Part shown: one piece after another, positions 2,767 to 47,217 of the stretch
Numbering within the stretch: the stretch's first letter is position 1
Layout: the number at the start of each line of letters is the position of its first letter
From: an uncultured bacterium
GTDB taxonomy: Bacteria > Patescibacteriota > Minisyncoccia > Phycocordibacterales > UBA9973
DNA length: 64,000 nucleotides
Assembly (NCBI GenBank): GCA_903894955.1
Contig: CAITSA010000028.1
Coordinates: forward strand, 8,495-72,494
Direction: 5' to 3'
Notes under the pieces: generated by a model
What the model was told of the DNA's origin: nothing
Seen by the model: the letters and a program-made list of their open reading frames with translations, nothing else
Database searches by the model: none
Program-made: the position numbers and the translations under genes

Positions 2767-3690
2767 TTATTTATTTAAATATTTCCTAACCGCTAAAAAG
2801 CTAGAGATAATACCTAAACCTACGCCTGATAATAAAAGAATGGTGAAAATTTGAAAGAAATTTGAAATATAATAATCATACATATTGATTCCTAGAAAAT
2901 CAGTCATCTTGGCTCCAAACCAAGCCATTGCGGGCCAAAAAAGAATAACAGTAATAAAGGTCGCTACCATACCATAAATTGCACCTTCAATCATGAAAGG
3001 TCCTCGCACATGCATTTTCGAAGCACCCACGAGACGCATTACGCCAATTTCTTCTTTAGAAATAAAAATAGTTAACCGAATGGTGTTTAAAGTAATAATA
3101 ATAGAAAGAATAACAAAAAGTAGTGTTACTAGAAAACCAAGTTTTTGGGCACCGGAAATAATTGCATTTAATTTGTCGATCACGGATTTGTTTTGATAAT
3201 AATTTACTTTATCTATAATCGAAGCAGATCCGATCACTAAGGCATCGTCTGATTTCAAAAAATTCGCAATACTTTCATATTGAGAAACTTCTTTAGCTTT
3301 AACATTAAGATATGCGCCAAGAGGGTTGGTGCCTATTTCGTCCAGAGCTTGAATCGTCGGATAGTCACTAGAGTGACGGTCACGGAAATTTTTCAAGGCT
3401 TCGTCTGCACTAGTATAAGATACAGTGGCTACTTCTGGTAATCTTTCTAAGGAAGATTTTAAGGTCAAAATTTTATCCTCTGGTGCACTGGTAGTAAAAT
3501 AAATAGCCACGTCCACCTTGTCTTTTATTTGATTGAGAGAAAAATGCAAAACTGCTTGTAAAAGAATAATAATAGTAATGACACAGAGAGTGACTGTAAC
3601 CACCAGAACAGCTGCCCAAGAAACCAGTCCACTTCTTTTAAAGTTTAAAAATCCATTTTTTATAATTCTTTTGAATGCGATTAATGCCAT
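2767..3690 (-). CDS. ftsX: cell division permease FtsX
   Basis: 307 aa with 4 TM segments and FtsX-like C-terminal permease domain. Lies immediately downstream of ftsE. Confidence 0.85.
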   Translation of the reverse strand: MALIAFKRIIKNGFLNFKRSGLVSWAAVLVVTVTLCVITIIILLQAVLHFSLNQIKDKVDVAIYFTTSAPEDKILTLKSSLERLPEVATVSYTSADEALKNFRDRHSSDYPTIQALDEIGTNPLGAYLNVKAKEVSQYESIANFLKSDDALVIGSASIIDKVNYYQNKSVIDKLNAIISGAQKLGFLVTLLFVILSIIITLNTIRLTIFISKEEIGVMRLVGASKMHVRGPFMIEGAIYGMVATFITVILFWPAMAWFGAKMTDFLGINMYDYYISNFFQIFTILLLSGVGLGIISSFLAVRKYLNK

Positions 3691-3692
3691 AA

Positions 3693-3753
3693 GTTAGGTT
3701 CTAGTTTTTAGCTTCTAGGTTCTAGTAACTAATCACTAGTCACTAGCACCTAA
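3693..3753. repeat. CTAG-rich intergenic repeat, copy 1 (ttaggttctag...cactagtcactagcacctaa)
   Basis: Fills the ftsE-ftsX intergenic gap. Same motif family as 30095-30168 and 42278-42330. Confidence 0.6.
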
Positions 3754-3766
3754 TTATAATAGCATA

Positions 3767-9209: not shown

Positions 9210-9890
9210 TTATGCAATTTTTGATATATATTCTATAGCACCTAAGATTTTATTTCGTAAAGTTGTGCCTTTTCTTACTTTAACCCTTAAAATACCTTTA
9301 TACTTTTCTATGTTTTTCAAAGAAGCTTTTTTAAGATTCGTCTGAATATAAGTAGTTTTTGAAAATTGTTCTTTGGTAATACCTAAGAAGTTTATCCAAA
9401 AGGATTTTATATTATTTTCTTCTTTCCTAAAAAATTCATTCAAAGTAAGACGAAAGATAAGAGAATCTTTTTCCACATTCCATAATCCTAACCATTTAAA
9501 ATAAAAACGTATCATGTATGGATTACTGTTTGTAAACCCAAATTCACCATTTTCATATTTATAGCCTTCTCCCCAATACAATCCAAAACCAACCATTAAA
9601 ATATCTCTATCCGATAACGTACCTAAGGCTTTGATACCCTCTTGTCTTTGTAAAATATTTCTTTCAATTCTTTCTTTTCTCTTTAATTCAGAAAATCTTA
9701 AAAGACCCCTGACGGATTCTAGCTTTCCTTGTGTTTTTATTTTTTTTATTGCAGATTCAGTGAGAATCATGTCTTTACACCAAAAACTAAGAGTGGATTT
9801 TGTGACATTTAACTTTTTTGAAATATCACCTAAACTCATACCACTTTTCCGCATTTTTTTTGCTGTTTCTTTTACTTGTGGATAGTACAT
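9210..9890 (-). CDS. hypothetical DNA-binding protein (N-terminal HTH; possible degenerate LAGLIDADG-like GFGLYWGEGY segment)
   Basis: The ORF-track start at 9986 runs into AT-rich junk. The likely start is M33 at 9890 or M45 at 9854. HTH segment LGDISKKLNVTKSTLSFW. Confidence 0.4.
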   Translation of the reverse strand: MYYPQVKETAKKMRKSGMSLGDISKKLNVTKSTLSFWCKDMILTESAIKKIKTQGKLESVRGLLRFSELKRKERIERNILQRQEGIKALGTLSDRDILMVGFGLYWGEGYKYENGEFGFTNSNPYMIRFYFKWLGLWNVEKDSLIFRLTLNEFFRKEENNIKSFWINFLGITKEQFSKTTYIQTNLKKASLKNIEKYKGILRVKVRKGTTLRNKILGAIEYISKIA

Positions 9891-9966
9891 AAGGTATATT
9901 ATAACTAAGAGTGAGTACAAAAACAACTTGCGTATTTTAAAAATATAATATAAAATAATCTGTATA

Positions 9967-10278
9967 GCGGGGTAGAGAAGAGGCATCTCGTAAGGCTCAG
10001 CGGTATAAAATGGGCCCCCTCTTGGGAAACCTTGAGGTGAGCATTCGTCAAATTCGGAGAAATCCTCTCTGTTAATTAATAGAAGGACAATTCCGAGCTA
10101 AATTTTTTAACTTATGTTAAAAATAAATGTGTAGAGACTAGATGGCGAACTCCTTAATCTTTAAATTTATTTTTAGACAGGAGATGGTATAGTCCAGACC
10201 ACAAATTCAATTTGAAGCAGTGAAAACTGAAGTGGTAAAGCATAACCTTAAGACTCACGTTCGATTCGTGACCCCGCA
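9967..10278 (+). ncRNA. ssrA: candidate tmRNA (ssrA)
   Basis: About 312 nt GC-enriched non-coding stretch. The 5' GCGGGG pairs with 3' CCCCGC-A, and a canonical T-arm TCACG-TTCGATT-CGTGA lies immediately 5' of it. A possible tag reading frame GCA..taa tag is at 10041-10082. No G3:U70 pair seen. Confidence 0.4.
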
Positions 10279-10367: not shown

Positions 10368-11003
10368 CTAGATATAGCCATACTCATGAAAAATCTGCTC
10401 GTATAAAGCGATTACTCTTTTGGCTTCGTGTTGTGAAAGTTCAAAAGCTAAACCTTCATGGGCTATTCTGTTTCTAACAGTATGGACTTCCCAAGCTTTG
10501 GTCAGATTAGGAAAATTTTCTTGATTGGCTAATTTTAATCTATCACCTAAAGTTTCACCCCTAAAACCTAATTGATCCATCAAATTCTCCAGCATAGAGT
10601 CTGCCTCAATAATGGCAAGCTTCCAATCACTTGCATGTTGAGAAAACAGATAACTCAGGGTCTTGCTCCAACGTTCATTTTTTGAACCTCCGACTTCTTC
10701 ATGCAAATGTTTTTCATATTCAGCTTTATTGTGCGCATACTCCTCTATCTCATGTTTTAAATGCTTTTTTTCTTTAGCTCTGATTTCCAACAACCGAACG
10801 GCGGTATAACAAATTATTACCAAAAAAAACATGGCCAAAAAGAAAAGGGCTGTCTTCCCAAGATTTGTCACTTGTTCGCTAAAAATATAAGAAAAAAAAT
10901 TGTGAAGATAGGTAACCCCGTGATTAAATAAATATCCCGGATCAAAATATTTAGAATCAAAAAAGGAACCGGACAGCAAATTATTTTGATTGACTGTTTC
11001 CAT
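10368..11003 (-). CDS. hypothetical membrane-anchored protein with HEPN-like Rx4H motif (RNRIAH) in the C-terminal domain
   Basis: 211 aa. One TM segment (ALFFLAMFFLVIICY), then a coiled charged region and a C-terminal helical domain. Confidence 0.4.
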   Translation of the reverse strand: METVNQNNLLSGSFFDSKYFDPGYLFNHGVTYLHNFFSYIFSEQVTNLGKTALFFLAMFFLVIICYTAVRLLEIRAKEKKHLKHEIEEYAHNKAEYEKHLHEEVGGSKNERWSKTLSYLFSQHASDWKLAIIEADSMLENLMDQLGFRGETLGDRLKLANQENFPNLTKAWEVHTVRNRIAHEGLAFELSQHEAKRVIALYEQIFHEYGYI

Positions 11004-11047
11004 ATATAGTAAATTATACCCTGTAGCAGAATTTTTTCAAAATTCTG

Positions 11048-12484
11048 CTACAGGGCTATATTAGCCTCAAATTTCTTGCCAATTTCAAAGAGTAAATCCT
11101 CTGCCCCATGTGAGGCCATAAGTTGAATTCCAAGTGGTAATCTTTTTCCTGCCTGCGCAAGGTCTTCTATTTCCATGAAACCTGATGGTAAAGAAACAGC
11201 TGGCACGCCGACAAGGTTAGCGGTCACGGTAAAGATATCAGCTAAATACATAGAAAGTGGATCACTTTTCTCCCCTATTTTCCAAGCCGGAATGGGAGAG
11301 GTTGGTGTTAAGATTAAATCAACTTCAGAAAATAATTCTATAAACTCTTTTCTTAAAGCTATTCTGGCTTTTTGTGCCTTGCCATAATAAGCATCATAAT
11401 ATCCAGCCGAAAGCACGTAAGCGCCAAGTAAAATTCTTCTGCGAGTTTCCTTGCCAAAACCAGCGCCCTTGGTTAGTAAATAGTCTTCCAGTAAATTTTT
11501 ACCATCTTTATGCAAACCGTATCTTACTCCATCAAAACGAGCTAGGTTAGTTGAAACTTCAGCAAAATTAATAATGTAATATAGAGCTAGGCAATTTGGT
11601 AATTTAATATCTTTAATTTTATAACCTAAATTCTCAAAACTTTTTACTACTTCTTCAAAATTTTTCTTTATTTCAAGATTAATTCCTTCTTGATTTATCA
11701 AGTCCCAAGGTACACCAATAATTAATTCTTTTTTGAGAGAAATTTTCTCATAAAAGTTATCAGGAACACTAGTGCTGTCTAAGATATCGTTTCCTTTTAT
11801 GACATCAAATATAATTTGAGCATCTTCTGTCGTTTTAGTAATTGGCCCAATAACATCAAAAGATGATACTGCCGCGATAAGGCCATAACGAGAGACTCCC
11901 CCATAAGTAGGTTTCATTCCAACTACTCCACAAAAAGCAGCTGGGTGACGAACTGAGCCTCCAGTATCTGAACCTAAGGACGCCAATGCCATATTACTGG
12001 CCACGGCAACGGCTGAACCACCAGAAGTACCTCCAGGCACTCTATTGGTATCGTGAGGATTTTTGGTCACTCCATAGGCAGAATTTTCAGTCGAACTCCC
12101 TAAGGCAAATTCATCCATATTTGTTCGGCCCAGAAATACCGCTCCTTGTTTCTTCAACTTAATTATTGCAGTGGCGTCATAAGAAGCTGTATAATTTTCT
12201 AAAATTTTTGAGGCCGAAGAAACTTTTCTACCTTTGATTAAAATAACATCTTTAATGGCCAAAGGAATACCCAAAAGCGGAGATGAATCCCCTTTAGCGA
12301 TCCGCTCATCTGCCTCTTTTGCTTGATCTAACACATCATCATAGACTTCTAAATAAGCATTGAGTTCTTTGTTTTTCTTTTCAATCTCAGCTAAATAAGC
12401 TTTCGCTAAATCTACCGCGGAAAAAATTTTTCCATCAAGAGCCACTCTTGCTTTAGTGATAGTGAGAGTATCTAAATCAATCAT
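11048..12484 (-). CDS. gatA: Glu-tRNA(Gln)/Asp-tRNA(Asn) amidotransferase subunit A
   Basis: 478 aa with amidase signature GGSSGGSAVAVAS. Confidence 0.9.
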   Translation of the reverse strand: MIDLDTLTITKARVALDGKIFSAVDLAKAYLAEIEKKNKELNAYLEVYDDVLDQAKEADERIAKGDSSPLLGIPLAIKDVILIKGRKVSSASKILENYTASYDATAIIKLKKQGAVFLGRTNMDEFALGSSTENSAYGVTKNPHDTNRVPGGTSGGSAVAVASNMALASLGSDTGGSVRHPAAFCGVVGMKPTYGGVSRYGLIAAVSSFDVIGPITKTTEDAQIIFDVIKGNDILDSTSVPDNFYEKISLKKELIIGVPWDLINQEGINLEIKKNFEEVVKSFENLGYKIKDIKLPNCLALYYIINFAEVSTNLARFDGVRYGLHKDGKNLLEDYLLTKGAGFGKETRRRILLGAYVLSAGYYDAYYGKAQKARIALRKEFIELFSEVDLILTPTSPIPAWKIGEKSDPLSMYLADIFTVTANLVGVPAVSLPSGFMEIEDLAQAGKRLPLGIQLMASHGAEDLLFEIGKKFEANIAL

Positions 12485-14770: not shown

Positions 14771-15322
14771 CTAGAACTTCACTTCAACGGGATTCTGGGC
14801 AACGTCGTTGTCAGGAAGATCAAAGAATTCCATTTTAGAGAAATTAAACATACCGGCAATAAGATTACCTGGAAAACTTTCAATAGAAATATTCAAATCT
14901 CGAACATTGATATTGTAGAATCTACGAGCAGCTTGAATTTTATTTTCTGTATCTGAAAGTTCGTTCTGGAGTGCCAAGAAATTCTGATTGGCTTTTAAAT
15001 CTGGATAAGCTTCGGCAATGGCAAAAACGGATTTCAAGGCTCCGGTAAGCATATTTTCTGCTTGTCCTTTATCTGCTAAATTACTTCCCGCACCCATCGC
15101 AACTGATCTCGCCTTAGTAACATTCTCAAAAGCGCTAGATTCGTGAGTAGCGTATCCCTTTACAGTATTTACTAAATTTGGAATTAAATCATATCGACGC
15201 TTCAACTGCACTTCAATATCCGCCCAAGCTTCTCTAGCTCGGTTACGAAGAGAAACAAAACGATTAAAAATAAAGATTAATAATAAAACTACAACTCCTA
15301 AAATTATTAAAAGATACATCAT
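14771..15322 (-). CDS. lemA: LemA family protein
   Basis: The true start is likely MMYLLIIL at 15322. The ORF-track start at 15358 is a TTG inside the MITE terminal repeat. Confidence 0.75.
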   Translation of the reverse strand: MMYLLIILGVVVLLLIFIFNRFVSLRNRAREAWADIEVQLKRRYDLIPNLVNTVKGYATHESSAFENVTKARSVAMGAGSNLADKGQAENMLTGALKSVFAIAEAYPDLKANQNFLALQNELSDTENKIQAARRFYNINVRDLNISIESFPGNLIAGMFNFSKMEFFDLPDNDVAQNPVEVKF

Positions 15323-15337
15323 ACTTGTATTGTAGCA

Positions 15338-15414
15338 CCCAGTAGTGAATTTTGGCAATGTGCTAGGGCACGTAAATTTTTTTAAAATTTACCTTGCCAA
15401 AATCTACTACTGGG
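15338..15414. mobile_element. 77-bp MITE copy A (21-bp TIR cccagtagtgaattttggcaa / ttgccaaaatctactactggg; flanking 5-bp direct repeat TAGCA)
   Basis: Near-perfect terminal inverted repeats. Target-site-duplication-like TAGCA at 15333-15337 and 15415-15419. A second copy is at 22533-22609. Confidence 0.7.
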
Positions 15415-15467
15415 TAGCACTTATTTCCCGTCTGCAAAAGCTAGGCTTTAGCATTACGGGCAGGTTT

Positions 15468-15512
15468 CTTCTGCCACTCTTCTACTAAGACCAGTAGTGG
15501 TAAGTCTAAGAA
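15468..15512. repeat. about 45-bp degenerate duplicate of the secF 3' end (ttctgccactcttctactaagacca...)
   Basis: About 87% identical to 16196-16240, which encodes the SecF C-terminus LLVLVEEWQKK. Confidence 0.5.
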
Positions 15513-15548
15513 AACGCCAGTAATAAGGACAGTCCTTGCTACTTTTTG

Positions 15549-16130
15549 CTATTCTTTTATTGCTTCAAGAATCATAGGAAGAAGAGAACTTGTTTTTTTC
15601 CCTGTACTTTCGTTCATGTCAAAAAACGCTGCGCTCCAAACAGACATTTCCTTTTCATCCAGAGTTATGGGGCGAGGTTCCGATGTTATTTTCAAACCAA
15701 CTTCATTTAAAACTTCCATTATATAATTAATACAAGCTTTTGTATCTACTATTATTATTTTCCCGTCTTTTTTTAAGACATTTTTTATATCTCTCATGAG
15801 TCTCGCGTATTTTTGTTTGTCTTCTTCAATAGTCGTTGAAGCTTCTTCTTTTGTGTTCAATTCTCCCATTAAAAAATTGGCACTCGCTTCACTAATTGTT
15901 CCTTCCAAAAATGGCAAATGGGAATCAATATCACTTTTCCAAATTATTGTATGTAAATTTTTAAGTTTTGAAGTTGAATTTTTGTTATTTGAAAGATTTG
16001 GAAATGGATCAAGTATAACAAAAGTTTTGTCTGGATTTTCTTTTGCCTTATTAAAAAGATACTCTCCTGTTCCGCCACCCACATCAATATGTATTTCTGG
16101 CTTTTGTGTTGGGATTAATTCGTTTCTCAT
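15549..16130 (-). CDS. small class I SAM-dependent methyltransferase
   Basis: 193 aa with motif I IDVGGGTGEY. Confidence 0.6.
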   Translation of the reverse strand: MRNELIPTQKPEIHIDVGGGTGEYLFNKAKENPDKTFVILDPFPNLSNNKNSTSKLKNLHTIIWKSDIDSHLPFLEGTISEASANFLMGELNTKEEASTTIEEDKQKYARLMRDIKNVLKKDGKIIIVDTKACINYIMEVLNEVGLKITSEPRPITLDEKEMSVWSAAFFDMNESTGKKTSSLLPMILEAIKE

Positions 16131-16161
16131 AATTTGATTATATTATTTGTGCGAGTTAAAA

Positions 16162-16186
16162 AATATCAAGGACTACCCTTGATATT
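16162..16186. terminator. rho-independent terminator after secF
   Basis: Hairpin aatatcaagg-actac-ccttgatatt with a T-run after it in both orientations. Confidence 0.6.
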
Positions 16187-16187
16187 T

Positions 16188-17090
16188 TTATTTTTTTTTC
16201 TGCCACTCTTCTACTAAGACCAAAAGTGGTGAGGCCAAGAAAATTGAAGAATATGTTCCAAAAAACATTCCAGCGGTAAGCATAAGAGCAAAATACCTTG
16301 TAGAAACAGGACCAAAGAAGAATAAGGCAAGTAACACCAAAATAACGGTCAATGATGTACAAATAGATCGGACATATGATTGCTCTAAGCTTTTACCAAC
16401 TATTTCACCAAAATTTATTTTAGCTATTGTGTTTTGATTTCTTAAATTTTCCCTGATTCGATCAAAAATAACTATCGTATCCGAAACAGAAAGACCTAAA
16501 ATAGTAAGAACTGCGACCACAAAAAGAGTATCGAGTTCTGCTCCATAATAATGAGAAAGTATCACAAACAATCCGACCGGTATCGCTACGTCATGTAAAA
16601 GTGTAATGATAGCAATGAGACCATATCTCCAAGAAGAAACTGGTTTAGAAACTTTTCTAAACGCAAAAGCAATAAAACAAATAATGGCCAAGGAAATTAA
16701 AATAATTGCCAAAATTGCTTTTCTGGTAAGTTCTTGACCAACTGTTGGTCCAACAGAATTAAAACTCATTTCCGTAAGAGGGTTATTGTTATTTAAAGAA
16801 AGTGTTTGTAATAAAGTGGTATGTTCCGAATCGCTCAAATCCCGAGTCTTAACAATATAACCAAAATCCCCTGTTGGCTGAAGAAGCACAGAACCGAAAC
16901 CAAGAGAAGCTAAAGACTTATCTAAAATGTCTTGAGCGGGACGCTCTGTTTTATAAACAACTTCCGTCAACGCTCCACCTTTAAAATCAATACCAACATT
17001 AAATCCAAAGACAAATAAAGAGAGGAGTGAAAGAGCGACCAAGACTACTGATATGCTAATGAATATTTTTTTGTATTTTATTATGAACAT
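16188..17090 (-). CDS. secF: protein-export membrane protein SecF
   Basis: 300 aa with SecF topology and motifs (GIDFKGG...). Confidence 0.85.
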   Translation of the reverse strand: MFIIKYKKIFISISVVLVALSLLSLFVFGFNVGIDFKGGALTEVVYKTERPAQDILDKSLASLGFGSVLLQPTGDFGYIVKTRDLSDSEHTTLLQTLSLNNNNPLTEMSFNSVGPTVGQELTRKAILAIILISLAIICFIAFAFRKVSKPVSSWRYGLIAIITLLHDVAIPVGLFVILSHYYGAELDTLFVVAVLTILGLSVSDTIVIFDRIRENLRNQNTIAKINFGEIVGKSLEQSYVRSICTSLTVILVLLALFFFGPVSTRYFALMLTAGMFFGTYSSIFLASPLLVLVEEWQKKK

Positions 17091-19688: not shown

Positions 19689-20563
19689 TTTATATTCTTC
19701 GCTACGATTAATACATTACTAAGAAGCATCGCAACAGTGACTGGCCCCACGCCTCCGGGCACAGGCGATACATAACCTGCCACTTCCGAAACGGAATCTA
19801 AATCAATATCTCCTACAATACCAGCGCCGGACTCAGAAGTTCCTGCGTCAATTAAGATTGCACCTTCTTTTACCATATTACCTTTTATCAACTTCCCTTT
19901 CCCAGTAGCAGAAATAATAACATCAGCCTCTTTTAATCTTTTTATTCTTTCAGCTTCTTCTGTTTTTCTATCTATGACAAATGTTTCTAAATTTCTCGCA
20001 TTGAGTAATTTCCTAACTGGACGACCCACGAGTTCACCCTTGCCAATTATTATTATTTTTTTATCTTTCAAGTCTAAATTCAAGGAATCAAGTAAATGCA
20101 TACAAGCCAGAGCTGTAGGGAAAGTAATAGTAAAATCTCCCTGCCTACCTTGCCTACCGGCAGGCAGGCCGGGCAGGCAGGCATTGTAAAACTTTTCACT
20201 CGCGATATTTCCGAGACAATCCACATCAAGCTTCGAATCTATGGCATCTAATATACGCCTTTGGTCTAGCGATGCAGGCAATGGAAGTTGAACAATAATT
20301 CCGCACATATTTTCTACTTTATTTAAAATCTTTATTTCTTTAACTAAATCTTCAGTGGTAATACCCGAGGGAAAAGAAGCACTTTGGAATTTGATACCCA
20401 CTGACTCTGACATACGTGCTTTCATTCTTACATACTGGGCTGAGACAGGATCCTCCCCTACCAACACATCACAAAAAATCGGATTAAAAGAAAGTGTAGC
20501 TACTTCTTCTTTCACTTTGGCTAAAATTTCGTCTCGTATTTTTTTCCCATCAATTATTTTCAT
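19685..20563 (-). CDS. folD: bifunctional methylene-THF dehydrogenase/methenyl-THF cyclohydrolase
   Basis: 292 aa FolD-like throughout. Carries an in-frame GC-rich insert encoding LPGLPAGRQGRQG. Confidence 0.9.
   Translation of the reverse strand: MKIIDGKKIRDEILAKVKEEVATLSFNPIFCDVLVGEDPVSAQYVRMKARMSESVGIKFQSASFPSGITTEDLVKEIKILNKVENMCGIIVQLPLPASLDQRRILDAIDSKLDVDCLGNIASEKFYNACLPGLPAGRQGRQGDFTITFPTALACMHLLDSLNLDLKDKKIIIIGKGELVGRPVRKLLNARNLETFVIDRKTEEAERIKRLKEADVIISATGKGKLIKGNMVKEGAILIDAGTSESGAGIVGDIDLDSVSEVAGYVSPVPGGVGPVTVAMLLSNVLIVAKNIK
20138..20183. repeat. GC-rich CTGCC/GGCAG palindromic element inserted in-frame in folD
   Basis: ctccctgcctaccttgcctaccggcaggcaggccgggcaggcagg. About 70% GC in a roughly 30% GC gene. 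Confidence 0.7.
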
Positions 20564-21717: not shown

Positions 21718-21722
21718 ATGAA

Positions 21723-22517
21723 TTATTGCAATCTAACAGATGAAATATCATAGATCGGAATTATTTCTTTGGCGACCACCTTGCCTGATAATGGCTCTGG
21801 CCAAGTGAAATTAATATCAGTATCTTGTAATGGATCAAGTTGATCCAAGAAGGTACGACTAGTAGAAATAGCATTTCCTTCTCCGTCATATAAAATCCCA
21901 ACTATGTTTACATTTGGGATAGTAAAAAGTGAATTATTTTTTATAGAAGCAGAAAGCTTGGGAGAGGTCGTCTCTCCTGAGAGTTGTATATTGGAAACCA
22001 AAACTTTTAACTGATTAATTTTCTCTTGCGACACTTGCTGCCATTGTGGTATTTTGTCTGTAAATTCAAAATCTGCATAAACAGGAATAGAATTCCCAAC
22101 ATCTATTCCTGGCTCAAAAACAGCAAAATTACCTCCCGGAGGAACAAAGGTGCTACCATCACGTTTGCCGATATAGACATGGTTCGCATCACGAAAAGTA
22201 AATCTATAATTTATATTTTCAATTACAGCGTTTTTATTGTGATTAACTAAATAAGCCACGGCATTATAACGTCCAGGTATAACCTTAAAAGGACGTGACC
22301 AGAGAATAGAAATCGCATCCATCTGATCCAAGCAAGCATTTAAACATGATCCTCCACAATCTATACCTGTTTCTGTACCGTTTTGTACACCATCCGAGCA
22401 AGTCGGTGCCTTGTTAAATTTAGGATAAAATATTAAAAATCCAAAAATAGAAAAAAATAAAATGAGAACCGCTACATAAAAAATTTGTCGCCTTAAAGCC
22501 CAAGAAGTAATTGCCAT
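21723..22517 (-). CDS. hypothetical secreted/membrane-anchored protein
   Basis: Likely real start MAITSW at 22517. The track start at 22553 is a TTG inside MITE copy B. Confidence 0.45.
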   Translation of the reverse strand: MAITSWALRRQIFYVAVLILFFSIFGFLIFYPKFNKAPTCSDGVQNGTETGIDCGGSCLNACLDQMDAISILWSRPFKVIPGRYNAVAYLVNHNKNAVIENINYRFTFRDANHVYIGKRDGSTFVPPGGNFAVFEPGIDVGNSIPVYADFEFTDKIPQWQQVSQEKINQLKVLVSNIQLSGETTSPKLSASIKNNSLFTIPNVNIVGILYDGEGNAISTSRTFLDQLDPLQDTDINFTWPEPLSGKVVAKEIIPIYDISSVRLQ

Positions 22518-22532
22518 AAAGATATAATAACA

Positions 22533-22609
22533 CCCCGTAGTAGATTTTGGCAATGTAAATTTTTTTTAAAATTTACGCACTTTGTGCTTTGCCAAAATTC
22601 ACTACAGGG
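22533..22609. mobile_element. 77-bp MITE copy B (inverted relative to copy A; flanking 5-bp direct repeat TAACA)
   Basis: TIR ccccgtagtagattttggcaa / ttgccaaaattcactacaggg. TAACA at 22528-22532 and 22610-22614. Confidence 0.7.
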
Positions 22610-22728
22610 TAACATGATTGATTTTCTTGAGCAAAGCAATCAAAAATGAGCCTAAATGAGTAAGAGCCCGAACATTTGCTTTTGACAAATGCCGGGCCCT
22701 AGAGATTTCGATTATTGGAGGTTAAATT

Positions 22729-23114: not shown

Positions 23115-25319
<2,205 letters not shown>

Positions 25320-25916
25320 TTAGTAAGTTTGCTTTATCTCTCGCGCCACACTATTAGCCGTCGGATTACAAGCATCAAGTGTGTCTCCTCCATTATTATA
25401 TCCATTGGAGGTAATAATGGTTGATGTTAATAATGTTTTATCCACTTTTATTTTTGCACAACCGTGTCCCTGAGAACCCAAACCTGACAGATTAAACATC
25501 CAAATTGGATCTGAATTGTCAACTGGGATATCACGACCAAGACATTGCATAGATCCAGTAGGAGGAGACACAAAAATAGTACTAGTTGATTTATCATTAA
25601 AAAGTGCGCATTCCCTGCCTGTGTCAGCGGCAAAGAAAGCTTCATTGGTATCCTTGGCAGAAGTACCAAATTTAATTTCGTTTAAGGCAATATTAGCTAT
25701 GCCTAAAGTAATGGATAAAATAATCGCTGAAAGTGTGACTGCAAAAAGTATTACAAACCCGGTAGTAGAGCTTGGCGATGTTTTAACTCTAGTTAAAACG
25801 TGCTTTACGCTTCGCCAAGTCTCACTACCGGGAAACCCAGAACGAAAGCCTTCGGCTTCGTACGGGACAAGTCCCCTTTTTAAAATATTAAGTTTTTTCG
25901 TAATTTTTGTAATCAT
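25320..25916 (-). CDS. pilin-like protein with very long N-terminal leader
   Basis: TTG|FVILFAVTLSAIILS hydrophobic pilin-type helix but no Glu at +5. GC hairpin (aagccttcggctt) in the leader-coding region. Confidence 0.5.
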   Translation of the reverse strand: MITKITKKLNILKRGLVPYEAEGFRSGFPGSETWRSVKHVLTRVKTSPSSTTGFVILFAVTLSAIILSITLGIANIALNEIKFGTSAKDTNEAFFAADTGRECALFNDKSTSTIFVSPPTGSMQCLGRDIPVDNSDPIWMFNLSGLGSQGHGCAKIKVDKTLLTSTIITSNGYNNGGDTLDACNPTANSVAREIKQTY

Positions 25917-26469: not shown

Positions 26470-27144
26470 TTATATATCTATTTGTCTTTGAGACACGGAA
26501 GTTTGTAAAGAAAAAGGAGATGGAGAAGTAATATTGTTTAAATTTATTGTCCCAACTAATTTAATCGTAACAAAAGGTTGTTGGTGGTCTCCTGATCCAT
26601 CAGGATTAGGTGCCTCAGCACCTTTTACTGTAAAACTGGAATTTGCTGCATCAATATTTATTTCATCGGGGGTTAGTTGAACTGTCACTCCGTTAACTAT
26701 TTTAAAAATACTATTTTTACTGGAATCATTCGGATTGATACCTATGTAATAAACCCACTGACCAGTAAGAGAGGATTTAAAAGAAATTCCTCCTCCTTTA
26801 GTAGGAATGGTATTTATATTGCAACTACGAGGAGTAGTGGTAATAAGATCTGTATCACCTGAAAATATACAACGATAATCATATCCTGTCCTTAAATTTC
26901 TAGACATATCTTCCATAGTAAAATTTAAGTTATCTAGAATGGAACGCATGTCTTGTGATTTTTTTTGGAGTAAATTGGCATTCAATAATGTTCCAATGCC
27001 CGTTGTGATGATAATTATAAAAAGCGCAACGGCAATCATTGTCTCGATGAGAGTGTACCCGGTAGTGAATTTTTTTATCCCGTTAGAGATAGGAAATGCT
27101 TTGCATTTCCGTAGTGATATTAATTTAAGTAAAACTTTTAACAT
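26470..27144 (-). CDS. type IV minor pilin/pseudopilin
   Basis: KKFTTG|YTLIETMIAVALF with Glu at +5. 29-aa leader. Confidence 0.7.
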   Translation of the reverse strand: MLKVLLKLISLRKCKAFPISNGIKKFTTGYTLIETMIAVALFIIIITTGIGTLLNANLLQKKSQDMRSILDNLNFTMEDMSRNLRTGYDYRCIFSGDTDLITTTPRSCNINTIPTKGGGISFKSSLTGQWVYYIGINPNDSSKNSIFKIVNGVTVQLTPDEINIDAANSSFTVKGAEAPNPDGSGDHQQPFVTIKLVGTINLNNITSPSPFSLQTSVSQRQIDI

Positions 27145-27199
27145 AAACTTATTATTACATTAATATTTCCAATTACAAACTGTACGATCTCTAACGGGA

Positions 27200-27901
27200 T
27201 TAATTAATCTGCACTCTACCGGAAGGATATAATTTTACAAAAGCTGTTAATCCTTTAGGTGACATAATAGTTATTCTAACATAATCAGAACCAGTAAAGG
27301 GTAAAGATGATAGTGGACTACTTAAAAATTGAGCTCCTGAATCCGGCCGTCTAAAGGTTGTAGCAATAGAGGTAATCGTTACAGATGGAAAAGGTAAAGT
27401 ACAAGCAGTATTGCTACATTTTTCAATCTTAGATATGTAATTATTTTTAGTAATATTTATAGTGTTCAACAACTCACTACTACTGATGTCATAAGCACCA
27501 TTACTATTTAAATCAGCAAAATAAATAAATTGTTTTTGAGAAGCCGGTGTAGTCGTATCAAACAAAACTCCATAAGATGGTTTCCAATCTACAGCAGCAG
27601 AAGAATTCCATAGACCATTTAAAGATGATCTTTGCGCTTGAACGAATTTCAACGCAATATCATTAGCTAAATTTTTAATATCAACCTTAGCTTGAAAACT
27701 TCCATAATTAAAAATAGCCACAGAGGACAAAACAGCAAAAATACTCAGAACAACGATAAGCTCTACGTAAGTCATCCCGTTAGAGGTAGTCCCGTTAAAG
27801 GCCACGAGGGCTCGCAGTGACCTTCTGCCTTTAACGGGACGTTTTATAATATTTTTAAGTAAGAAATTTATCATCAAGTTATTATTTATTATTATTTCCA
27901 A
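27200..27901 (-). CDS. type IV minor pilin/pseudopilin
   Basis: TSNG|MTYVELIVVLSIF with Glu at +5. The leader region contains a perfect 14-bp inverted repeat at 27789-27840. Confidence 0.65.
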   Translation of the reverse strand: MEIIINNNLMINFLLKNIIKRPVKGRRSLRALVAFNGTTSNGMTYVELIVVLSIFAVLSSVAIFNYGSFQAKVDIKNLANDIALKFVQAQRSSLNGLWNSSAAVDWKPSYGVLFDTTTPASQKQFIYFADLNSNGAYDISSSELLNTINITKNNYISKIEKCSNTACTLPFPSVTITSIATTFRRPDSGAQFLSSPLSSLPFTGSDYVRITIMSPKGLTAFVKLYPSGRVQIN

Positions 27902-27934
27902 TTATAAACTATATGACCTCTAATGGGATCATCC

Positions 27935-30060: not shown

Positions 30061-30094
30061 ATATATATGCAATTAAGTTATCCACAGGACAGAA

Positions 30095-30168
30095 TTAGGT
30101 TCTAGGTTCTAGGTTCTAGGTTCTAGAAATTCGCATTTTACTAGCTCACTAGCAACTAGAACCTAACT
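30095..30168. repeat. CTAG-rich intergenic repeat, copy 2 ((aggttct)x4 ... ctagctcactagcaactagaacctaa)
   Basis: Same family as copies at 3693 and 42278. Overlaps the pilC stop codon. Confidence 0.6.
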
Positions 30169-31371
30169 AATGCTCCCTGCCATATTATAAATTGGCATCA
30201 ATACAGAAACGAGCAAGATGCCTACCCCTAACCCTAAAACCACAATCATAATAGGCTCTATCAGCCCAACCAATGTATCAACGGCGTCATCCACTTCACG
30301 CCTGTAAAAATCAGCTAAGGTTTTTAAAATAGTTCCCAGAGCGCCGGTTTCTTCTCCTACTTGTATCATCTGCACTAAAATGCCAGGTATTTGGCCACTA
30401 TGTTTTCCAAATGCCGCCGAGAGAGACAACCCAGACTTTACTCCATCAGCCACATCTGTCAATATTTCTTTATATGACAAAGACCCCACGACTTGTCCAG
30501 TAATATCTATCGCTCGAATAATAGGAACTCCAGAGCTAAGCATCGTACTTAAGTTGTCTGTCATTCTAGAAAGATAAAGCTTTTTATATAAATTACCAAC
30601 AGCTGGGACAGAGAGTTTCAAACCATCAAGATACACTTTTCCTTTAGCGGTAGTGGACAATCTCCAAACCCAAATTCCTAAAAGCACTAAGAAAATCAAA
30701 ACAAAAAAACCGTAGTTAATAAATAAATTTGAAATTCCAATCACTATTTGAGTAAAAAATGGTGTTTCTTGACCAGAATCTAAAATAATGGCTGCAAGCT
30801 TTGGAATAACAACCACAAACATCAAAGTCATCACCACAAAGAAAGTAACAATAACAAAAGCCGGATAAATAAGCGCATTTTTAGTTTTAGAAGTAATAGA
30901 GTATTGGCGATCCAAATAATCTGCCAAATGTAAGAAAGTTTGATTAAGTTTCCCTGTCTCTTCGCCCACCTTTACCATATTGACATAAAAATCTGAAAAT
31001 ACATCTGGATGATGAGAGAGAGCGCCTGAAATAGAAACTCCGGCTTGAAGATCATCACTCACTTGAGCAAGTTTGCGCCCTAGAAGTTTGTTTTCGGTAT
31101 TAGTAGCTAGCATAGTAAAAGCTTTCAAGGCGGAAACTTGCGCCTCAAACAAAGTTGCAATTTGGCGAGAAAGAATCACCACGTCTTTCGTCTTGACTCT
31201 TTCAAAAAAAGAAATTTTTAAAAATGATTTATTGTCTCCTTCTTCTTTAATAGAAATAACAACCAGACCTCGTCGCTGAAGTCCACTGATTGCTATATCT
31301 CGACTGGGTGCATCAATTTCTCCTTCTTTGTTTACACCAGTATCATTTATCGCTTTATATTTAAATAACAT
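30163..31371 (-). CDS. pilC: type IV pilus inner-membrane platform protein PilC (GspF family)
   Basis: 402 aa, duplicated GspF domains, 3 TM. Confidence 0.85.
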   Translation of the reverse strand: MLFKYKAINDTGVNKEGEIDAPSRDIAISGLQRRGLVVISIKEEGDNKSFLKISFFERVKTKDVVILSRQIATLFEAQVSALKAFTMLATNTENKLLGRKLAQVSDDLQAGVSISGALSHHPDVFSDFYVNMVKVGEETGKLNQTFLHLADYLDRQYSITSKTKNALIYPAFVIVTFFVVMTLMFVVVIPKLAAIILDSGQETPFFTQIVIGISNLFINYGFFVLIFLVLLGIWVWRLSTTAKGKVYLDGLKLSVPAVGNLYKKLYLSRMTDNLSTMLSSGVPIIRAIDITGQVVGSLSYKEILTDVADGVKSGLSLSAAFGKHSGQIPGILVQMIQVGEETGALGTILKTLADFYRREVDDAVDTLVGLIEPIMIVVLGLGVGILLVSVLMPIYNMAGSIS

Positions 31372-41108: not shown

Positions 41109-42295
41109 ATAAAAATCCTAGAGAAAAATTAAGTATTGCGATGATCTGTGACCCGATTGGTAGTAACAAATCTGGGGTAGTTGTTTCTACTTTACGTTTT
41201 TCAAAATTACTAAAGGAACGCGGACATCATGTTATCTTTATCGCTGCACGATCACAAGAACACAAAGATCATAGTCATCATGACGGAGTGAAAGCTTATC
41301 GTTATCGTAGTCTTCCAGTTCCTAAAAGTGGTGGCTGGAATTTAGCTTTTCCAACAGTTAAAGAATTAAAAAAAGTTTTCCAAGAAGAAAAAATTAATGT
41401 AGTGCATATTCTTCTACCAATGACTGGCGCCATTGTCGCTATTAAGGCAGCCAAGGCATTAAATATAAAAATAGTGGCTCATTCTCATTCTCAGCCAGAA
41501 AATCTATTTATGGATATGCCGAAAATAATTCAACCCACCCTCGGTAAAATTTGGAATAAATATCTAGCTTGGATTTACGGAAAAGCAGAATTAATAATCT
41601 ATCCGACAGAATTTGGACGTCAACTCCTCCATCATTTAACTAAAAAAGACAAGAGCTCGACGGTTGTTTCTAACGGAGTAAATATTGAAAGATACAAAAT
41701 AAAAGAGGTGGGCGATTTTCATAGTCGATTTAATATTCCCAAAGATACCGTCAATATAATCTATGTCGGAAGACTTTATCCAGAAAAATCTGTTGATACC
41801 CTGATCAAAGCAGTTCCATATATTATTAAAGAAAATCCAAAAATACATGTAATGCTAGCCGGTGCCGGACACGTAAGACCAAAATTAGAAAAACTGGTAG
41901 ATAGTTTAAAAGTTAATAAACACGTTACCTTTTTGGGATTAGTGAGTGATGAAGATAAAATCTTGGCTTATAATGCCGGTGACATATTTATTTCACCATC
42001 CTTTGCAGAATTAGAAGGGATGACAGTTTTAGAAGCGATGGCTTGCGGTAAACCAATTATCGTCCCAGATGCGCAAATGAATGCGGCAAAATTTTTCATA
42101 GACAATAATGGATTTTTATTTGAAACTGAAAATCATAAAGATTTAGCAGAAAAAACTTTAAAATTAATCAATAATCCAGATTTAAGAAAAAAGCTCGGAG
42201 AAATTAGTTTAGCAAAAAGTAAAAATTATGCTATACATAAAAGTGTAGATTTATTAGAAGAAACTTATTATCAAGTATTAGGTTCTAGTTTCTAG
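41105..42295 (+). CDS. GT4-family glycosyltransferase
   Basis: 396 aa with the C-terminal E..E GT4 motif (EGMTVLEAMACGKPIIVPD). Confidence 0.85.
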   Translation: MNKNPREKLSIAMICDPIGSNKSGVVVSTLRFSKLLKERGHHVIFIAARSQEHKDHSHHDGVKAYRYRSLPVPKSGGWNLAFPTVKELKKVFQEEKINVVHILLPMTGAIVAIKAAKALNIKIVAHSHSQPENLFMDMPKIIQPTLGKIWNKYLAWIYGKAELIIYPTEFGRQLLHHLTKKDKSSTVVSNGVNIERYKIKEVGDFHSRFNIPKDTVNIIYVGRLYPEKSVDTLIKAVPYIIKENPKIHVMLAGAGHVRPKLEKLVDSLKVNKHVTFLGLVSDEDKILAYNAGDIFISPSFAELEGMTVLEAMACGKPIIVPDAQMNAAKFFIDNNGFLFETENHKDLAEKTLKLINNPDLRKKLGEISLAKSKNYAIHKSVDLLEETYYQVLGSSF

Positions 42296-42330
42296 GTTCT
42301 AGCACCTAGTCACTAGCAACTAGTAACTAA
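42278..42330. repeat. CTAG-rich intergenic repeat, copy 3
   Basis: ttaggttctagtttctaggttctagcacctagtcactagcaactagtaactaa. Supplies the last codons and the TAG stop of the GT4 gene. Confidence 0.6.
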
Positions 42331-42334
42331 TTAA

Positions 42335-43159
42335 ATGCAAGAACATATTTTTGAAAATAGAATATATTATCGAACTAATGAAAATAGACAAGACAGAATA
42401 ACTCTGGTATTTGTACATGGGGTTTCTGGTTCTTCTTCCGCTTGGCTTCCCTATGAAAAAATATTTGAAAATAAGTATAATGTTGTAACGGTTGATATAA
42501 GAGGACACGGTCTGTCAAAAAAATTCCCAAATTATTCTGATTATGAAGTCGAAAATTTTGCCCAAGACCTTCATGACTTAATTTCGTATTTAAAAATTTC
42601 AAAATTTGTTCTGATTAGCAACTCTTTTGCCGGACTGATTGCGCTCGAATATATAAAATTATGGAGAGAAACAGTCTCTGCCAATGTCTTCACCTCTCCA
42701 GAGATGTACCTACATGAAGGATTTTTGGCAAAAGTTATGCGAGTGCTTCTCGCCGCCCTAACAGGTATTATTAGTTTGTTACCATTTAATCCAAAACCTC
42801 GTGGCCATGTTGATTATAGTAAACACGTGAATTCAACTGATTGGAATATTAAAAGAAATTTGGCTGATATTAGAAACACCGGACTGCATGCGCATTTTTA
42901 CACTCTCAAACAATCACTTAACCCTAACCAAAAATATGACTTAGAAAAAATAAACGTGCCTACCCTAATCATGCATGGAGAAAAAGATTCAATGGTCCCA
43001 ATCAAAAATTCAATGAAGATGTCTGCGGAAATAAAAAATTCAGAATTTGTCAGTATCCCTAACGTGGACCACAATACCGCTCATAATGCGGTCAAAGAAA
43101 TGTCGCAAGCGATAGAGTTTTTTGTAGAAAAAAATAAAACAAAACTGTTGTTTTCTTAA
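42335..43159 (+). CDS. alpha/beta-fold hydrolase
   Basis: HGxxG oxyanion region (LVFVHGVSGSS) and nucleophile elbow SNSFAG. Confidence 0.8.
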   Translation: MQEHIFENRIYYRTNENRQDRITLVFVHGVSGSSSAWLPYEKIFENKYNVVTVDIRGHGLSKKFPNYSDYEVENFAQDLHDLISYLKISKFVLISNSFAGLIALEYIKLWRETVSANVFTSPEMYLHEGFLAKVMRVLLAALTGIISLLPFNPKPRGHVDYSKHVNSTDWNIKRNLADIRNTGLHAHFYTLKQSLNPNQKYDLEKINVPTLIMHGEKDSMVPIKNSMKMSAEIKNSEFVSIPNVDHNTAHNAVKEMSQAIEFFVEKNKTKLLFS

Positions 43160-43186: not shown

Positions 43187-43825
43187 ATGCAAAGTTATAA
43201 AACTCATTTCACTGATAAAAATTTCCTTATTGCTTTTTTGGGCGGTTTAATACTACTAGCAACAAGTCTAGTCGTTCAATTTTTTGTAAGTGGTTATGTC
43301 ACACGTGTTAGTAGTGGATCTGTCACTGACGTCATCCTCAGCAATACACGAGTCTATGATGTGGGTGGAATTTTTGTGTGGGGATCCGTAATTTTAACCA
43401 TTATTGGCATTGTGGTAATATTCAGACGACCAAACTATCTGCCATTTGTGATAAAAAGTGTTGCCACTTTTACCTTGATAAGATCATTTTTTGTAAGTCT
43501 CACTCACATTAGCCCTTTCCCTACCCATGCATTAATAGACTCAGCTTTTTTTGGGGGTGAAGCATTTCGTGGTATTTTCACCGGTAATGATCTTTTCTTT
43601 TCTGGGCACACTGGTATTCCCTTTCTTTTGGCTTTAATCTTTTGGGAAAATAAAACCCTCAGAATAGTTTTCTTGTCATTTTCTATTATGTTTGCGGTGG
43701 TAGTGCTCCTTGGGCATTTACACTATTCAATAGATGTTTTGTCGGCTTACTTTATCACCTTCACCATTTTCCATATTTGCCAAACATTATTCAAAAAAGA
43801 TTGGCAGTTATTTTTGAAAAAATAA
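43187..43825 (+). CDS. PAP2-superfamily membrane protein (PAP2_C/sphingomyelin-synthase-like motifs)
   Basis: FSGHTG and HYSIDVL motifs in a 6-TM protein. Confidence 0.45.
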   Translation: MQSYKTHFTDKNFLIAFLGGLILLATSLVVQFFVSGYVTRVSSGSVTDVILSNTRVYDVGGIFVWGSVILTIIGIVVIFRRPNYLPFVIKSVATFTLIRSFFVSLTHISPFPTHALIDSAFFGGEAFRGIFTGNDLFFSGHTGIPFLLALIFWENKTLRIVFLSFSIMFAVVVLLGHLHYSIDVLSAYFITFTIFHICQTLFKKDWQLFLKK

Positions 43826-43897
43826 TTTATCCCGTACTAAATTTTTGAGTAAAAACAATGACCACTATTAATAACAATTTAAAATTTTAGTACTGGG

Positions 43898-45118
43898 ATG
43901 AAACATTGTAAAGATTGTGAACCAGCCCAAGAAAGTCATTTTGTAGCATACACATCAGTAGTTTTGGGTTGGATAGATGAGCCATTTTTTGACTTAATGG
44001 AGCGTCTTTTCAAAAATACTGCTGAGATAATTTCCGACAAAATAACTCTACCCTTTTTTAATCTGATGGTTTTTCTAAAATTAGGATATTTTTCTTTCAA
44101 GCCTGACGAAAAAGATACTTGGAGAACAAAGTGTTTTTGGGATGAAGCAATTCGGCGCGGAATAAAAATGCGTGAATTTCACTTGGGTCCGATTAAAGAT
44201 GGCTTTGTGGCAGAATACAAAAACCCACGCCAAGGCGGGGCAAGTAAAACAATAACTTTTGATGGTCTGCCTCGCTCAGGATTTAAAGAATCCCCTGCTC
44301 TAAAATGGATGGACAATAAAGGCATAATGAAAACAAAATTTTTGAAAGAAGGTTTACCGGTAGCAGGGGGCGGAGTAGCTTTTACTAAAAGGCAAGCATT
44401 AAAAATTTTCAATAATATACAAAAAAACAAAAAGAGACCGGTGATTACGAAACCAAATTTAGGTTCTCGGAGCCGACATACAACGATTCACATCAACACT
44501 AGGGAAGATTTATTGATTGGTTTCAAAAAAGCAAAGAAACTTTCTCCGCTGGTGGTTATTGAAGAAGAACTTCGTGGAGATCTTTTTCGTGGAACATTAA
44601 TTGGAGGTAAATTAGTCGGAGTAGTAAAACGCGACCAACCACAAGTTGAAGGTGATGGAAGGGAAACAGTTGAACAGTTATTGGAAATAGAAAACAAAAG
44701 ACCCGAGCGGAATGGTCCAATTTTCCATAAAATAATTATAGACAAAGAAGCAGAAATGGAATTAAAAAGACAAAATGTAAAATTAGACGAGGTAATAGAA
44801 AAAGATAAAGTGGTAACATTTTCCCAAAAAACAAGTCGGGGTTGTGGAGGCACCACCACTGAAGTCACCAATATCGTGCATCCTGATAATGTAGAAATGT
44901 TAGAGCATGTCGCTAAATTTTTAGCTGACCCACTTATTGGAGTAGATTTCATTATTGAAGATGTCACCAAATCATGGAAGGAGGAACAGCATTGTGGAAT
45001 AATAGAATGCAATAGTTTGCCCTTTATAGATTTGCATCATTATCCACTTTTTGGGAAGCCCAACAACGTCGCTGGAAAACTTTGGGATTTGGTTTTACCA
45101 GAATCTAAATTAAAATAA
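43898..45118 (+). CDS. ATP-grasp-fold ligase-like protein with N-terminal CxxC
   Basis: 406 aa. ATP-grasp-like VVIEEELRGDLFRGTLIGGKLVGVVKR and C-terminal GVDFIIED...IIECNSLP. Confidence 0.45.
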   Translation: MKHCKDCEPAQESHFVAYTSVVLGWIDEPFFDLMERLFKNTAEIISDKITLPFFNLMVFLKLGYFSFKPDEKDTWRTKCFWDEAIRRGIKMREFHLGPIKDGFVAEYKNPRQGGASKTITFDGLPRSGFKESPALKWMDNKGIMKTKFLKEGLPVAGGGVAFTKRQALKIFNNIQKNKKRPVITKPNLGSRSRHTTIHINTREDLLIGFKKAKKLSPLVVIEEELRGDLFRGTLIGGKLVGVVKRDQPQVEGDGRETVEQLLEIENKRPERNGPIFHKIIIDKEAEMELKRQNVKLDEVIEKDKVVTFSQKTSRGCGGTTTEVTNIVHPDNVEMLEHVAKFLADPLIGVDFIIEDVTKSWKEEQHCGIIECNSLPFIDLHHYPLFGKPNNVAGKLWDLVLPESKLK

Positions 45119-47194: not shown

Positions 47195-47217
47195 ATTTTA
47201 ATTATATCAAATCTGTG

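Follow-up and report, generated by a model that had tools for sequence, protein, structure and literature searches.

Patescibacteria (CPR) are uncultured bacteria whose very small genomes are regarded as poor in mobile DNA. Several kinds of short repeats and mobile ends are known from other bacteria. The Correia elements (CREE/NEMIS) are 100–155 bp long, with 26-bp terminal inverted repeats (TIRs), a TA duplication and an IHF site, and occur in hundreds of near-identical copies in Neisseria alone. The Rickettsia palindromic elements (RPE), of ∼100–150 bp, can lie in frame in coding genes and be translated; they are not known for placement at promoter edges. REP elements, for which the tetranucleotide GTAG is reportedly typical, and the IS200/IS605-type enzymes make no target duplication. 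Outward −35 boxes in the ends of insertion sequences (IS1, IS2, IS30, IS257, ISAba1 and others) form hybrid promoters with a resident −10. IS1380 elements make 4–5-bp duplications, and ISEcp1 is an example of promoter donation. The piggyBac transposon has CCC tips and a TTAA duplication, and the IS1380 elements are its prokaryotic relatives (PMC10813416).

We analysed a stretch of 64,000 nucleotides (the window) from an uncultured bacterium of the Patescibacteriota, in which a preliminary description had noted a 77-bp repeat in two copies, A and B. Very probably, both are recent insertions of a ∼65–90-bp non-autonomous fold-back DNA transposon (MITE) that is widespread in Patescibacteria. To our knowledge, its arm sequence matches no IS. 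A literature search returned no paper linking MITEs with Patescibacteria/CPR, none with the arm sequence, and none relevant on Parcubacteria palindromic repeats or on leaderless combined with Patescibacteria. The element is a new MITE family, unusual in its placement at promoter edges, in the outward −35 boxes on both tips and in an interior that is free in sequence and kept in structure.

Results

Two copies of one architecture

Copies A and B were confirmed to share one 77-bp architecture in opposite orientations, as follows.

15333..15337: target-site duplication (TSD) of copy A, left, TAGCA (TGCTA on the gene strand; single TGCTA in relative L153)
15338..15414 (+): copy A, 77 bp, with a GTGAA-type arm at 15338-15358 and a GTAGA-type arm at 15394-15414
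15338-15358: left arm of copy A, CCCAGTAGTGAATTTTGGCAA, then T
15360-15371: GC mini-hairpin of copy A, GTGCTAGGGCAC
15372-15392: AT hairpin of copy A, GTAAATTTTTTTAAAATTTAC, then C
15394-15414: right arm of copy A, TTGCCAAAATCTACTACTGGG
15415..15419: TSD of copy A, right, TAGCA, read from the sequence
22528..22532: TSD of copy B, left, TAACA (TGTTA on the gene strand; single TGTTA in relative L155)
22533..22609 (−): copy B, 77 bp, with a GTAGA-type arm at 22533-22553 and a GTGAA-type arm at 22589-22609
22555-22576: AT hairpin of copy B
22577-22587: GC mini-hairpin of copy B
22610..22614: TSD of copy B, right, TAACA, read from the sequence

The near-perfect 21-bp TIRs reported earlier are 21-nt arms, CCCNGTAGTRRATTTTGGCAA, present in both A and B and complementary at 19/21 positions; the ends of the element read CCCNGTAGTRRA...TYYACTACNGGG. 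The arms of A and B have a fixed G.T/A.C double mismatch and, when the copies are aligned in opposite orientations, position 4 is their sole difference. The internal palindromes were also found in each copy, as a GC mini-hairpin and an AT hairpin, and the mini-hairpins of A and B differ by compensating changes (GTGC..GCAC versus GCAC..GTGC). Folding of A and B on both strands gave −35 to −42 kcal/mol (z = −7.5 to −8.7), and the predicted fold is a long stem bearing two hairpins. The arm pattern has four matches within the window, where shuffled sequence would give 0.02.

Further relatives in the window

The following relatives of A and B were observed in the window.

25758..25832 (−): copy C, 75 bp, with variant arms CCCGGTAGTAGAGCTTGGCGA / TCGCCAAGTCTCACTACCGGG, the changes being matched in both arms, and AAA/AAA flanks
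11019..11055: minimal relative of 37 nt that consists of the arms alone, CCCTGTAGCAGAATTTT..AAAATTCTGCTACAGGG
27058..27073 (+): remnant of a solo arm, CCCGGTAGTGAATTTT, within the leader of pilin-like ORF 26470..27144 (..GIKKFTTG/YTLIETM)
43830..43897: 68-nt diverged relative (tentative member of the family), with arms TCCCGTACTAAATTTT / AAATTTTAGTACTGGGA, filling the space from ORF 43187..43825 to the ATG of ORF 43898..45118

Copy C contributes 25 codons (PGSETWRSVKHVLTRVKTSPSSTTG) in frame to the leader of pilin-like ORF 25320..25916, immediately ahead of the G/F processing site. Pilin-like homologues were found both without this insert (P0244, P0249) and with it (P0260, P0290, P0357). The minimal relative adjoins the TATAAT-N9-ATG of ORF 10368..11003 and contains the stop codon of ORF 11048..12484. 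The 64 kb contain three clear copies and three to four relatives, and all three copies are absent from relative L158; such multiple, polymorphic copies are a mark of MITEs.

In L158, a ∼70-nt palindrome, TCCCGTATTAAATTTT...AAAATTTTAGTACTGGGA, lies at 10807-10873 between the ORF 21723 homologue and the ATG of rodA. It is of the same variant type as window 43830-43897 and ends GGGA/TG at the start codon. The window (21718-21722) and relative L156 are without it, which constitutes a presence/absence polymorphism.

Empty sites in close relatives

Relatives of the source organism were reached via LemA homologues. Empty sites, to which the preliminary description had tied its transposon reading, are present and clean in close relatives for both A and B. 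Copy A is missing in relatives L153, L147, L149, L151 and L158. In L153, whose LemA is 95% identical, the secF tail and a flank matching the left flank in the window near base for base lead into a single TGCTATAAT-aaaagt-ATGATG without the element. Copy B is missing in L155/L158 and in L156, with flanks that otherwise match; in L155 (ORF 21723 protein 87% identical) the sequence ...tttttgattgctttgctcaagaaaatcaatcaTGTTAttatatctttATGGCAATT equals the window flanks of B with one TGTTA. The empty site of copy C in L158 reads TCGGGG/TTCGTA, and a 20.8-kb syntenic stretch of L158 is without A, B and C. Relative L152 (LemA 96% identical) has a differing 36-nt stretch from TGCTATACT to the ATG and gives no clean empty site.

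Because the empty sites hold one pentamer between matching flanks, A and B are real transpositions with 5-bp target duplications, and the perfect flanking repeats noted earlier, TAGCA for A and TAACA for B, are true TSDs. As L153, L155 and L158 are empty, A, B and C are all insertions with real TSDs (5 bp for A and B, 3 bp for C), single copies of which remain in the relatives: TGCTA in L153, TGTTA in L155 and TTT in L158. Copies A and B are therefore recent insertions of a small mobile element.

A family widespread in Patescibacteria

The earlier expectation of further copies was borne out not only by the relatives in the window but also by arm-pattern scans, which gave 38 loci in species-representative genomes (chance expectation ∼4 by our own estimate) and 103 in metagenomes, 141 in total. 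All taxonomically labelled loci are in Patescibacteria MAGs, with two MAGs carrying the label 'bacterium' alone. The labels include Paceibacterota, Nomura-, Zambryski- and Kaiserbacteria, plus TPA bins labelled Saccharibacteria. Viral contigs, scanned twice, held zero arm-pattern loci. The element family is widespread in Patescibacteria, with few copies per genome by the exact arm pattern (1–3 loci per MAG).

Scripted pairing of the arms defined 144 elements of 37–128 nt (mode 75), 119 of them unique with flanks and representing ∼83 independent sites. They have the size and non-coding nature of MITEs, with no ORF of their own. The 21-nt TIRs, 19/21 complementary, are conserved over the 144 elements. 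Minimal arms-only forms occur at loci L006, L033, L078 and L107, as at window 11019-11055, and nested or tandem insertions at L001, L016 and L043.

Exact flanking repeats of 3–5 nt were observed for 80 of the 119 elements, against ∼8.6 expected with shuffled partners. TSDs of 4 nt are the most frequent (n = 35), followed by those of 5 nt (n = 30) and 3 nt (n = 15), a range that is loose for a single enzyme. Their pattern is mostly T(N)2-3A: 5-nt TSDs have T at position 1 in 19/20 and A at the last position in 20/20, and the 4-mers are chiefly TTGA/TCAA. These data bear on whether the element could be a static conserved regulatory palindrome, never mobile, whose flanking repeats are coincidental promoter sequence. 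Its adjacency to promoters and the occupation of the same promoters in several lineages (see below) would fit such a palindrome. However, the varied flanking repeats and the nested and tandem insertions do not, and a static operator is refuted by the clean one-pentamer empty sites with matching flanks for A, B and C; we give this reading practically no chance.

The invariant part of the family is the arm pair, CCCNGTAGTGAATTTTGGCAA at one end and CCCNGTAGTAGATTTTGGCAA at the other, with an arm conservation of ∼95%. The arm not used for ascertainment has 0–2 mismatches in 129/144 elements. One arm is of the GTGAA type and the other of the GTAGA type, which accounts for the fixed G.T plus A.C double mismatch in the stem; this GA versus AG difference is fixed in 44 and 46 of 48 arm pairs. 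The CCC/GGG tips are kept in at least 43/48 arm pairs at each of three terminal positions. The arms also co-vary, with 10/21 paired stem positions altered on both sides compared to 3.6±1.1 in shuffles.

A REP/REPIN-like element moved by a RAYT (Y1 HUH transposase) via a single-stranded hairpin is very improbable in the light of the variable TSDs, which are proven by empty sites and which IS200/IS605-type enzymes do not make. Its points of agreement are the GTAG in each arm, the whole element forming a hairpin whose arms co-vary around a fixed internal mismatch, and the conservation of the arms in situ. Nevertheless, the arms are not self-palindromic REP units, the inner hairpins are mutually unrelated and the window showed no RAYT-like gene.

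The interiors have no common sequence, yet 58/80 fold as exactly two adjacent hairpins (mean z = −2.5), and the two inner hairpins of an element are unrelated to each other. Could the element act as a structured RNA, its three-way junction (a long stem plus two hairpins) ending the upstream transcript at its 3′ side and serving there as a terminator or insulator, an exonuclease block or an RNase III site, or else forming a small RNA? The very stable folds on both strands, the two-hairpin interior kept despite free sequence, the co-varying arms and the usual location between co-directional genes are consistent with this proposal. On the other hand, elements occur in both orientations, and the position-4 C.A mismatch falls on either strand regardless of gene direction, so that there is no strand preference. 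No T-run follows the stem (TGCTA.. or TTGAC.. is found instead), and the scanner gave a weak internal terminator-like match for A but none for B; a GC hairpin with a T-run is already present at the gene upstream of B, whether the element is there or not. Furthermore, Rfam 15 at gathering and permissive thresholds gave sub-threshold miRNA-hairpin noise alone, and some copies are within coding leaders. Taken together, a structured RNA appears improbable. As intrinsic terminators, A and B were rejected for want of a GC hairpin followed by a T-run.

At four loci (L024, L028, L053 and L100), a conserved family member adjoins a gene that by eye resembles 5S rRNA. The same element appears nested there in what is left of an older arm (flank TTTCACTACGGGG).

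Search for a partner transposase

In agreement with the preliminary description, which had noted no transposase in the window, none was found by Pfam/NCBIfam on 46 ORFs, those outside the stretch syntenic with L158, or among the precomputed Pfam calls for L158. An autonomous partner was sought in ∼0.9 Mb around the copies, where no arm pair 0.5–6 kb apart encloses an ORF. Arm pairs 140–6000 nt apart at the 141 loci and in the window were chance or unrelated pairs alone, and looser CC.GTAGTR ends 500–4000 nt apart gave the same outcome. The ends and duplications (CCC/GGG tips, 4–5-nt T..A duplications) are of the kind seen in IS1380/piggyBac elements.

An element-borne −35-like hexamer and predicted hybrid promoters

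Each arm bears a TTGCCA that points outward and lies 15 nt from the tip; combined with a TGnTA duplication, it gives TTGCCA-N18-TAnnnT. Two hybrid promoters are predicted in this way.

15329..15358 (−): predicted hybrid promoter of lemA; TTGCCA at 15358..15353, 18-nt spacer, TG at 15337..15336, resident −10 TACAAT at 15334..15329
22524..22553 (−): predicted hybrid promoter of ORF 21723..22517; TTGCCA at 22553..22548, 18-nt spacer, TG, −10 TATTAT at 22529..22524

In lemA, the −10 is followed after 6 nt by the true ATG (15322..15320), where LemA homologues start, and TGnTAnAAT-N6-ATG is kept in the empty orthologous sites. In ORF 21723..22517 there are also 6 nt from the −10 to the ATG (22517..22515). 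A consensus scanner called both promoters independently, as TTGCCA-18-TACAAT and TTGCCA-18-TATTAT, each scoring 10/12 with TG. The empty allele of B has the promoter TTGCTC-N17-TATTAT, which suggests that the insertion displaced the ancestral −35 and substituted the element's own. Donation of a −35 is a consensus-based prediction, and extended −10 promoters may need no −35. The spacing to the −10 is 15–16 nt in the class with a −10 at the junction. The MITE reading of the first description held, but it had overlooked that the target pentamers are the start of an extended −10 and that its TTG start is an outward −35-like hexamer.

Start codons of lemA and ORF 21723

The element had been said to make ORF callers extend both downstream proteins with the peptide MPK(F/S)TTGCY. 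The extensions occur for both genes in a mechanical ORF list, whereas in the deposited record only lemA is extended: public annotation has LemA in its 195-aa TTG form (P0002; other callers give 183 aa, P0001) and the ORF 21723 protein in its 264-aa ATG form (P0121). MPKxTTGCY is missing from the orthologues of LemA, which have 182–183 aa and begin M(M)YLLIILG, and from those of the 21723 protein (260–264 aa). In other genomes, longer LemA calls translate the conserved TGCTAYAAT as '..CYN..', preceded by prefixes that are unrelated. At both 15358 and 22553, the TTG forms the opening triplet of the TTGCCA hexamer. As it is upstream of the −10 and of the predicted transcription start, it should be off the mRNA, which makes MPK(F/S)TTGCY an annotation artefact in these two genes; the TTG would be in frame with them by accident. 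The artefact does not extend to the whole family, since the arm peptide (PGSE.W...LPKSTTG) is also found within real tmk N-termini and prepilin leaders.

At the tmk 5′ end of loci L106, L108, L113 and L115, AAA-flanked family members of 69 or 75 nt lie in frame after codons 5–7 and are open throughout (PGSEFWQ...LPKSTTG). In the ligA gene of the window, an in-frame 105-nt palindrome at 24419-24523 (28-nt arms, 96% complementary) has GTAGTGAAATTTTC in common with the MITE arms; it is absent in a relative, where ligA encodes 691 aa versus 732 aa here. GC-rich palindromes (CCTGCCTACCTTGCCTACCGGCAGGCAGG-like) are also in frame in folD (20140-20170; 292 aa here versus 282 aa in L158) and in a 13-residue ligA segment, both being housekeeping genes of an AT-rich genome.

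Placement at promoter edges

Read outward across the flanks of the family, TGnTAnnnT starts at offset 0 from the tip in 43/238 flanks and in at most one flank at each of the offsets 1–17. A second peak at offset 20 comes from flanks opening with TTGACA-like hexamers (the −35 class). At 58 of the 83 independent sites the element adjoins a promoter element exactly, and the sites divide by junction as follows.

Extended −10: n = 24
−10: n = 9
−35 with a −10 at 15–19 nt: n = 19
TTGnn alone: n = 6
None of these: n = 25

The junction of the surviving copies falls with single-base precision on the TG of an extended −10 or on the initial T of either a −10 or a −35 TTGACA; a rarer placement is in frame within dispensable 5′ coding sequence. 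As the tips abut promoter elements, the target duplication is the first 4–5 bases of such an element. An ATG is found 6–9 nt after the −10 in 37/43 cases, and leaderless mRNAs are therefore implied.

The same promoters have been struck in different lineages: that of lemA again in L076, and that of the ORF 21723 homologue again in L031 (in the opposite orientation) and L057. Such promoters are occupied in distantly related lineages and vacant in close relatives (L031 compared to window B; L076 compared to window A). At the extended −10 sites the GTAGA arm is proximal in 18 versus 6 independent sites (p = 0.023), copy A being in the minority orientation. Where one arm alone survives, it is always the promoter-proximal one. 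The genes downstream are heterogeneous and have no common theme.

The window has 13 sites (e.g. 8190, 8920, 12768, 36451, 47209 and 49612) with TGnTAnnnT-5–9 nt-ATG in which the ATG opens an ORF of at least 60 codons. Judged from these motifs, a sizeable share of the window genes may use extended −10 promoters and leaderless mRNAs.

Conservation of the arms at orthologous sites

Arm identity is 96–99% in five groups of orthologous sites, compared to 61–76% for the flanks (including 5′ coding sequence) and mostly 50–72% for the interiors, a comparison that is biased because the loci were ascertained by exact arm match. The constraint on arms and interior hairpins exceeds the expectation for a purely selfish, decaying MITE, although some promoters have probably been struck more than once. 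Conservation of the arms could arise from purifying selection (exaptation) or from young copies re-inserting at hot-spot promoters. All members of the 'MQTK' group have intact arms and a decayed left target repeat, while in the ruvX group the TSDs are intact. Decayed target repeats in one group favour selection; intact repeats and the empty sites of close relatives favour repeated insertion.

Exaptation, which is compatible with a MITE origin, would place the arms under host-level purifying selection as a portable promoter/operator module: either a site for a conserved, possibly transposase-derived, protein near many promoters, or an obligatory −35/UP-like module. We know of no protein that binds the arms. 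Besides the identity values and the 'MQTK' group, the promoter-proximal position of all solo arms, the fixed GA versus AG difference between left and right arms and the orientation bias at the extended −10 point to such a role. However, the ascertainment biases the comparison of arms and flanks, the intact TSDs of the ruvX group argue for young insertions, the downstream genes lack a common theme, and promoters that are filled in distant and empty in close lineages, one of them in the opposite orientation, fit recurrent young insertion. On balance we consider exaptation a possible but rather doubtful addition to the MITE reading.

Other features of the window

ORF 15549..16130 (193 aa, with weak methyltransferase Pfam hits) is part of an insertion into the 3′ end of secF (window 15465-16243), which is bounded by a ∼50-nt duplication (15465-15514 versus 16194-16243, 88%). 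In L153 and L158 the secF tail is uninterrupted (EEWQKKPARNTKA*) and without this ORF. A second direct repeat (27159-27200 versus 27888-27929), in a pilin-like cluster, matches the secF duplication in its 729-nt spacing and probably reflects gene paralogy. A group I intron match (80 bits) is located at 9988-10216 (+), near tRNA genes; the adjoining ORF 9210..9986 (−), of 258 aa, has sub-threshold N-terminal HTH hits and a LAGLIDADG-like motif, GFGLYWGEGYK. ARAGORN called a tRNA-Ser with anticodon ACT at 47217-47304 (−), beside a divergent tRNA-Ser(GCT) at 47387-47476 (+). Intergenic short tandem repeats of the TAGGTTCTAG / CACTAGNAACTAG type are present at 3688-3756, 30089-30170 and 42279-42347, and an unrelated inverted repeat with 31-nt arms, 87% complementary and 92 nt apart, at 55537-55690.

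Discussion

We propose that the MITE is mobilised in trans by a putative DDE-type transposase making 4–5-nt staggered cuts, for which the CCC...GGG tips, the T..A TSDs and the empty sites, all reminiscent of piggyBac/IS1380, are the guide. Since neither an autonomous element nor a transposase in the window was found, the transposase family and the cut-and-paste chemistry are inferred only. Insertion at TGnTA would rebuild TTGCCA-N18-TAnnnT even where the old −35 has been cut away, as in copy B. A rebuilt promoter would make such insertions tolerable or useful, and insertions at these positions may persist by keeping or improving promoter function.

The single-base precision upstream of the −35, at places where any nearby T..A should do, hints that the enzyme itself prefers promoter edges. 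It is conceivable, but in our estimate unlikely, that the transposition machinery reads sigma-70-type hexamers or DNA distorted by RNA polymerase and inserts at the upstream edge of the −35 or extended −10, the arms being kept as a −35/operator module that is possibly bound by a domesticated transposase. If insertion did read promoters, the placement would not be due to survivorship, and the family would be a mobile promoter-rewiring system across Patescibacteria and a possible case of promoter-directed integration in bacteria.

In practical terms, the family offers a cheap marker for real promoters and leaderless gene starts where transcript mapping is absent. Its filled and empty alleles are a natural series of promoters in which the −35 may have been swapped for an element-borne one. 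The arm TTG is a recurrent source of start-codon mis-annotation, and the family also yields in-frame insertions in proteins.

Compared to known systems, the likeness to piggyBac/IS1380 is in the CCC...GGG tips, the 4–5-nt T..A duplications, the footprint-free empty sites and the ends predicted to be able to drive a downstream gene. The family differs in TSDs that range over 3–5 nt and in a target that is not TTAA. REP/BIME/REPIN sequences are likewise extragenic, hairpin-forming repeats with GTAG that are conserved across strains; however, target duplications are found here and none for REP. The RPE are also palindromic repeats of a reduced genome that can lie in frame and be translated, which here would apply to the prepilin leader, the tmk N-termini and perhaps ligA. 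They are longer, though, and unrelated in sequence, and most copies of our family are intergenic.

The Correia elements are, like this family, short bacterial MITEs with hairpin-folding TIRs that lie next to genes, and their ends have promoter hexamers that make or modify the promoter of a neighbour. A Correia element was rejected as an identity for the copies since both TSDs and arm sequence differ. The elements described here are 65–90 bp long, with unrelated TIRs, 3–5-nt T..A duplications, highly variable interiors, few copies and an exact position at promoter hexamers. Finally, as in the hybrid promoters formed at IS ends, an outward −35-like hexamer near the tip joins a resident −10. What is an occasional outcome for a full IS is here the standard context of a 75-bp element, with the hexamer on both tips.
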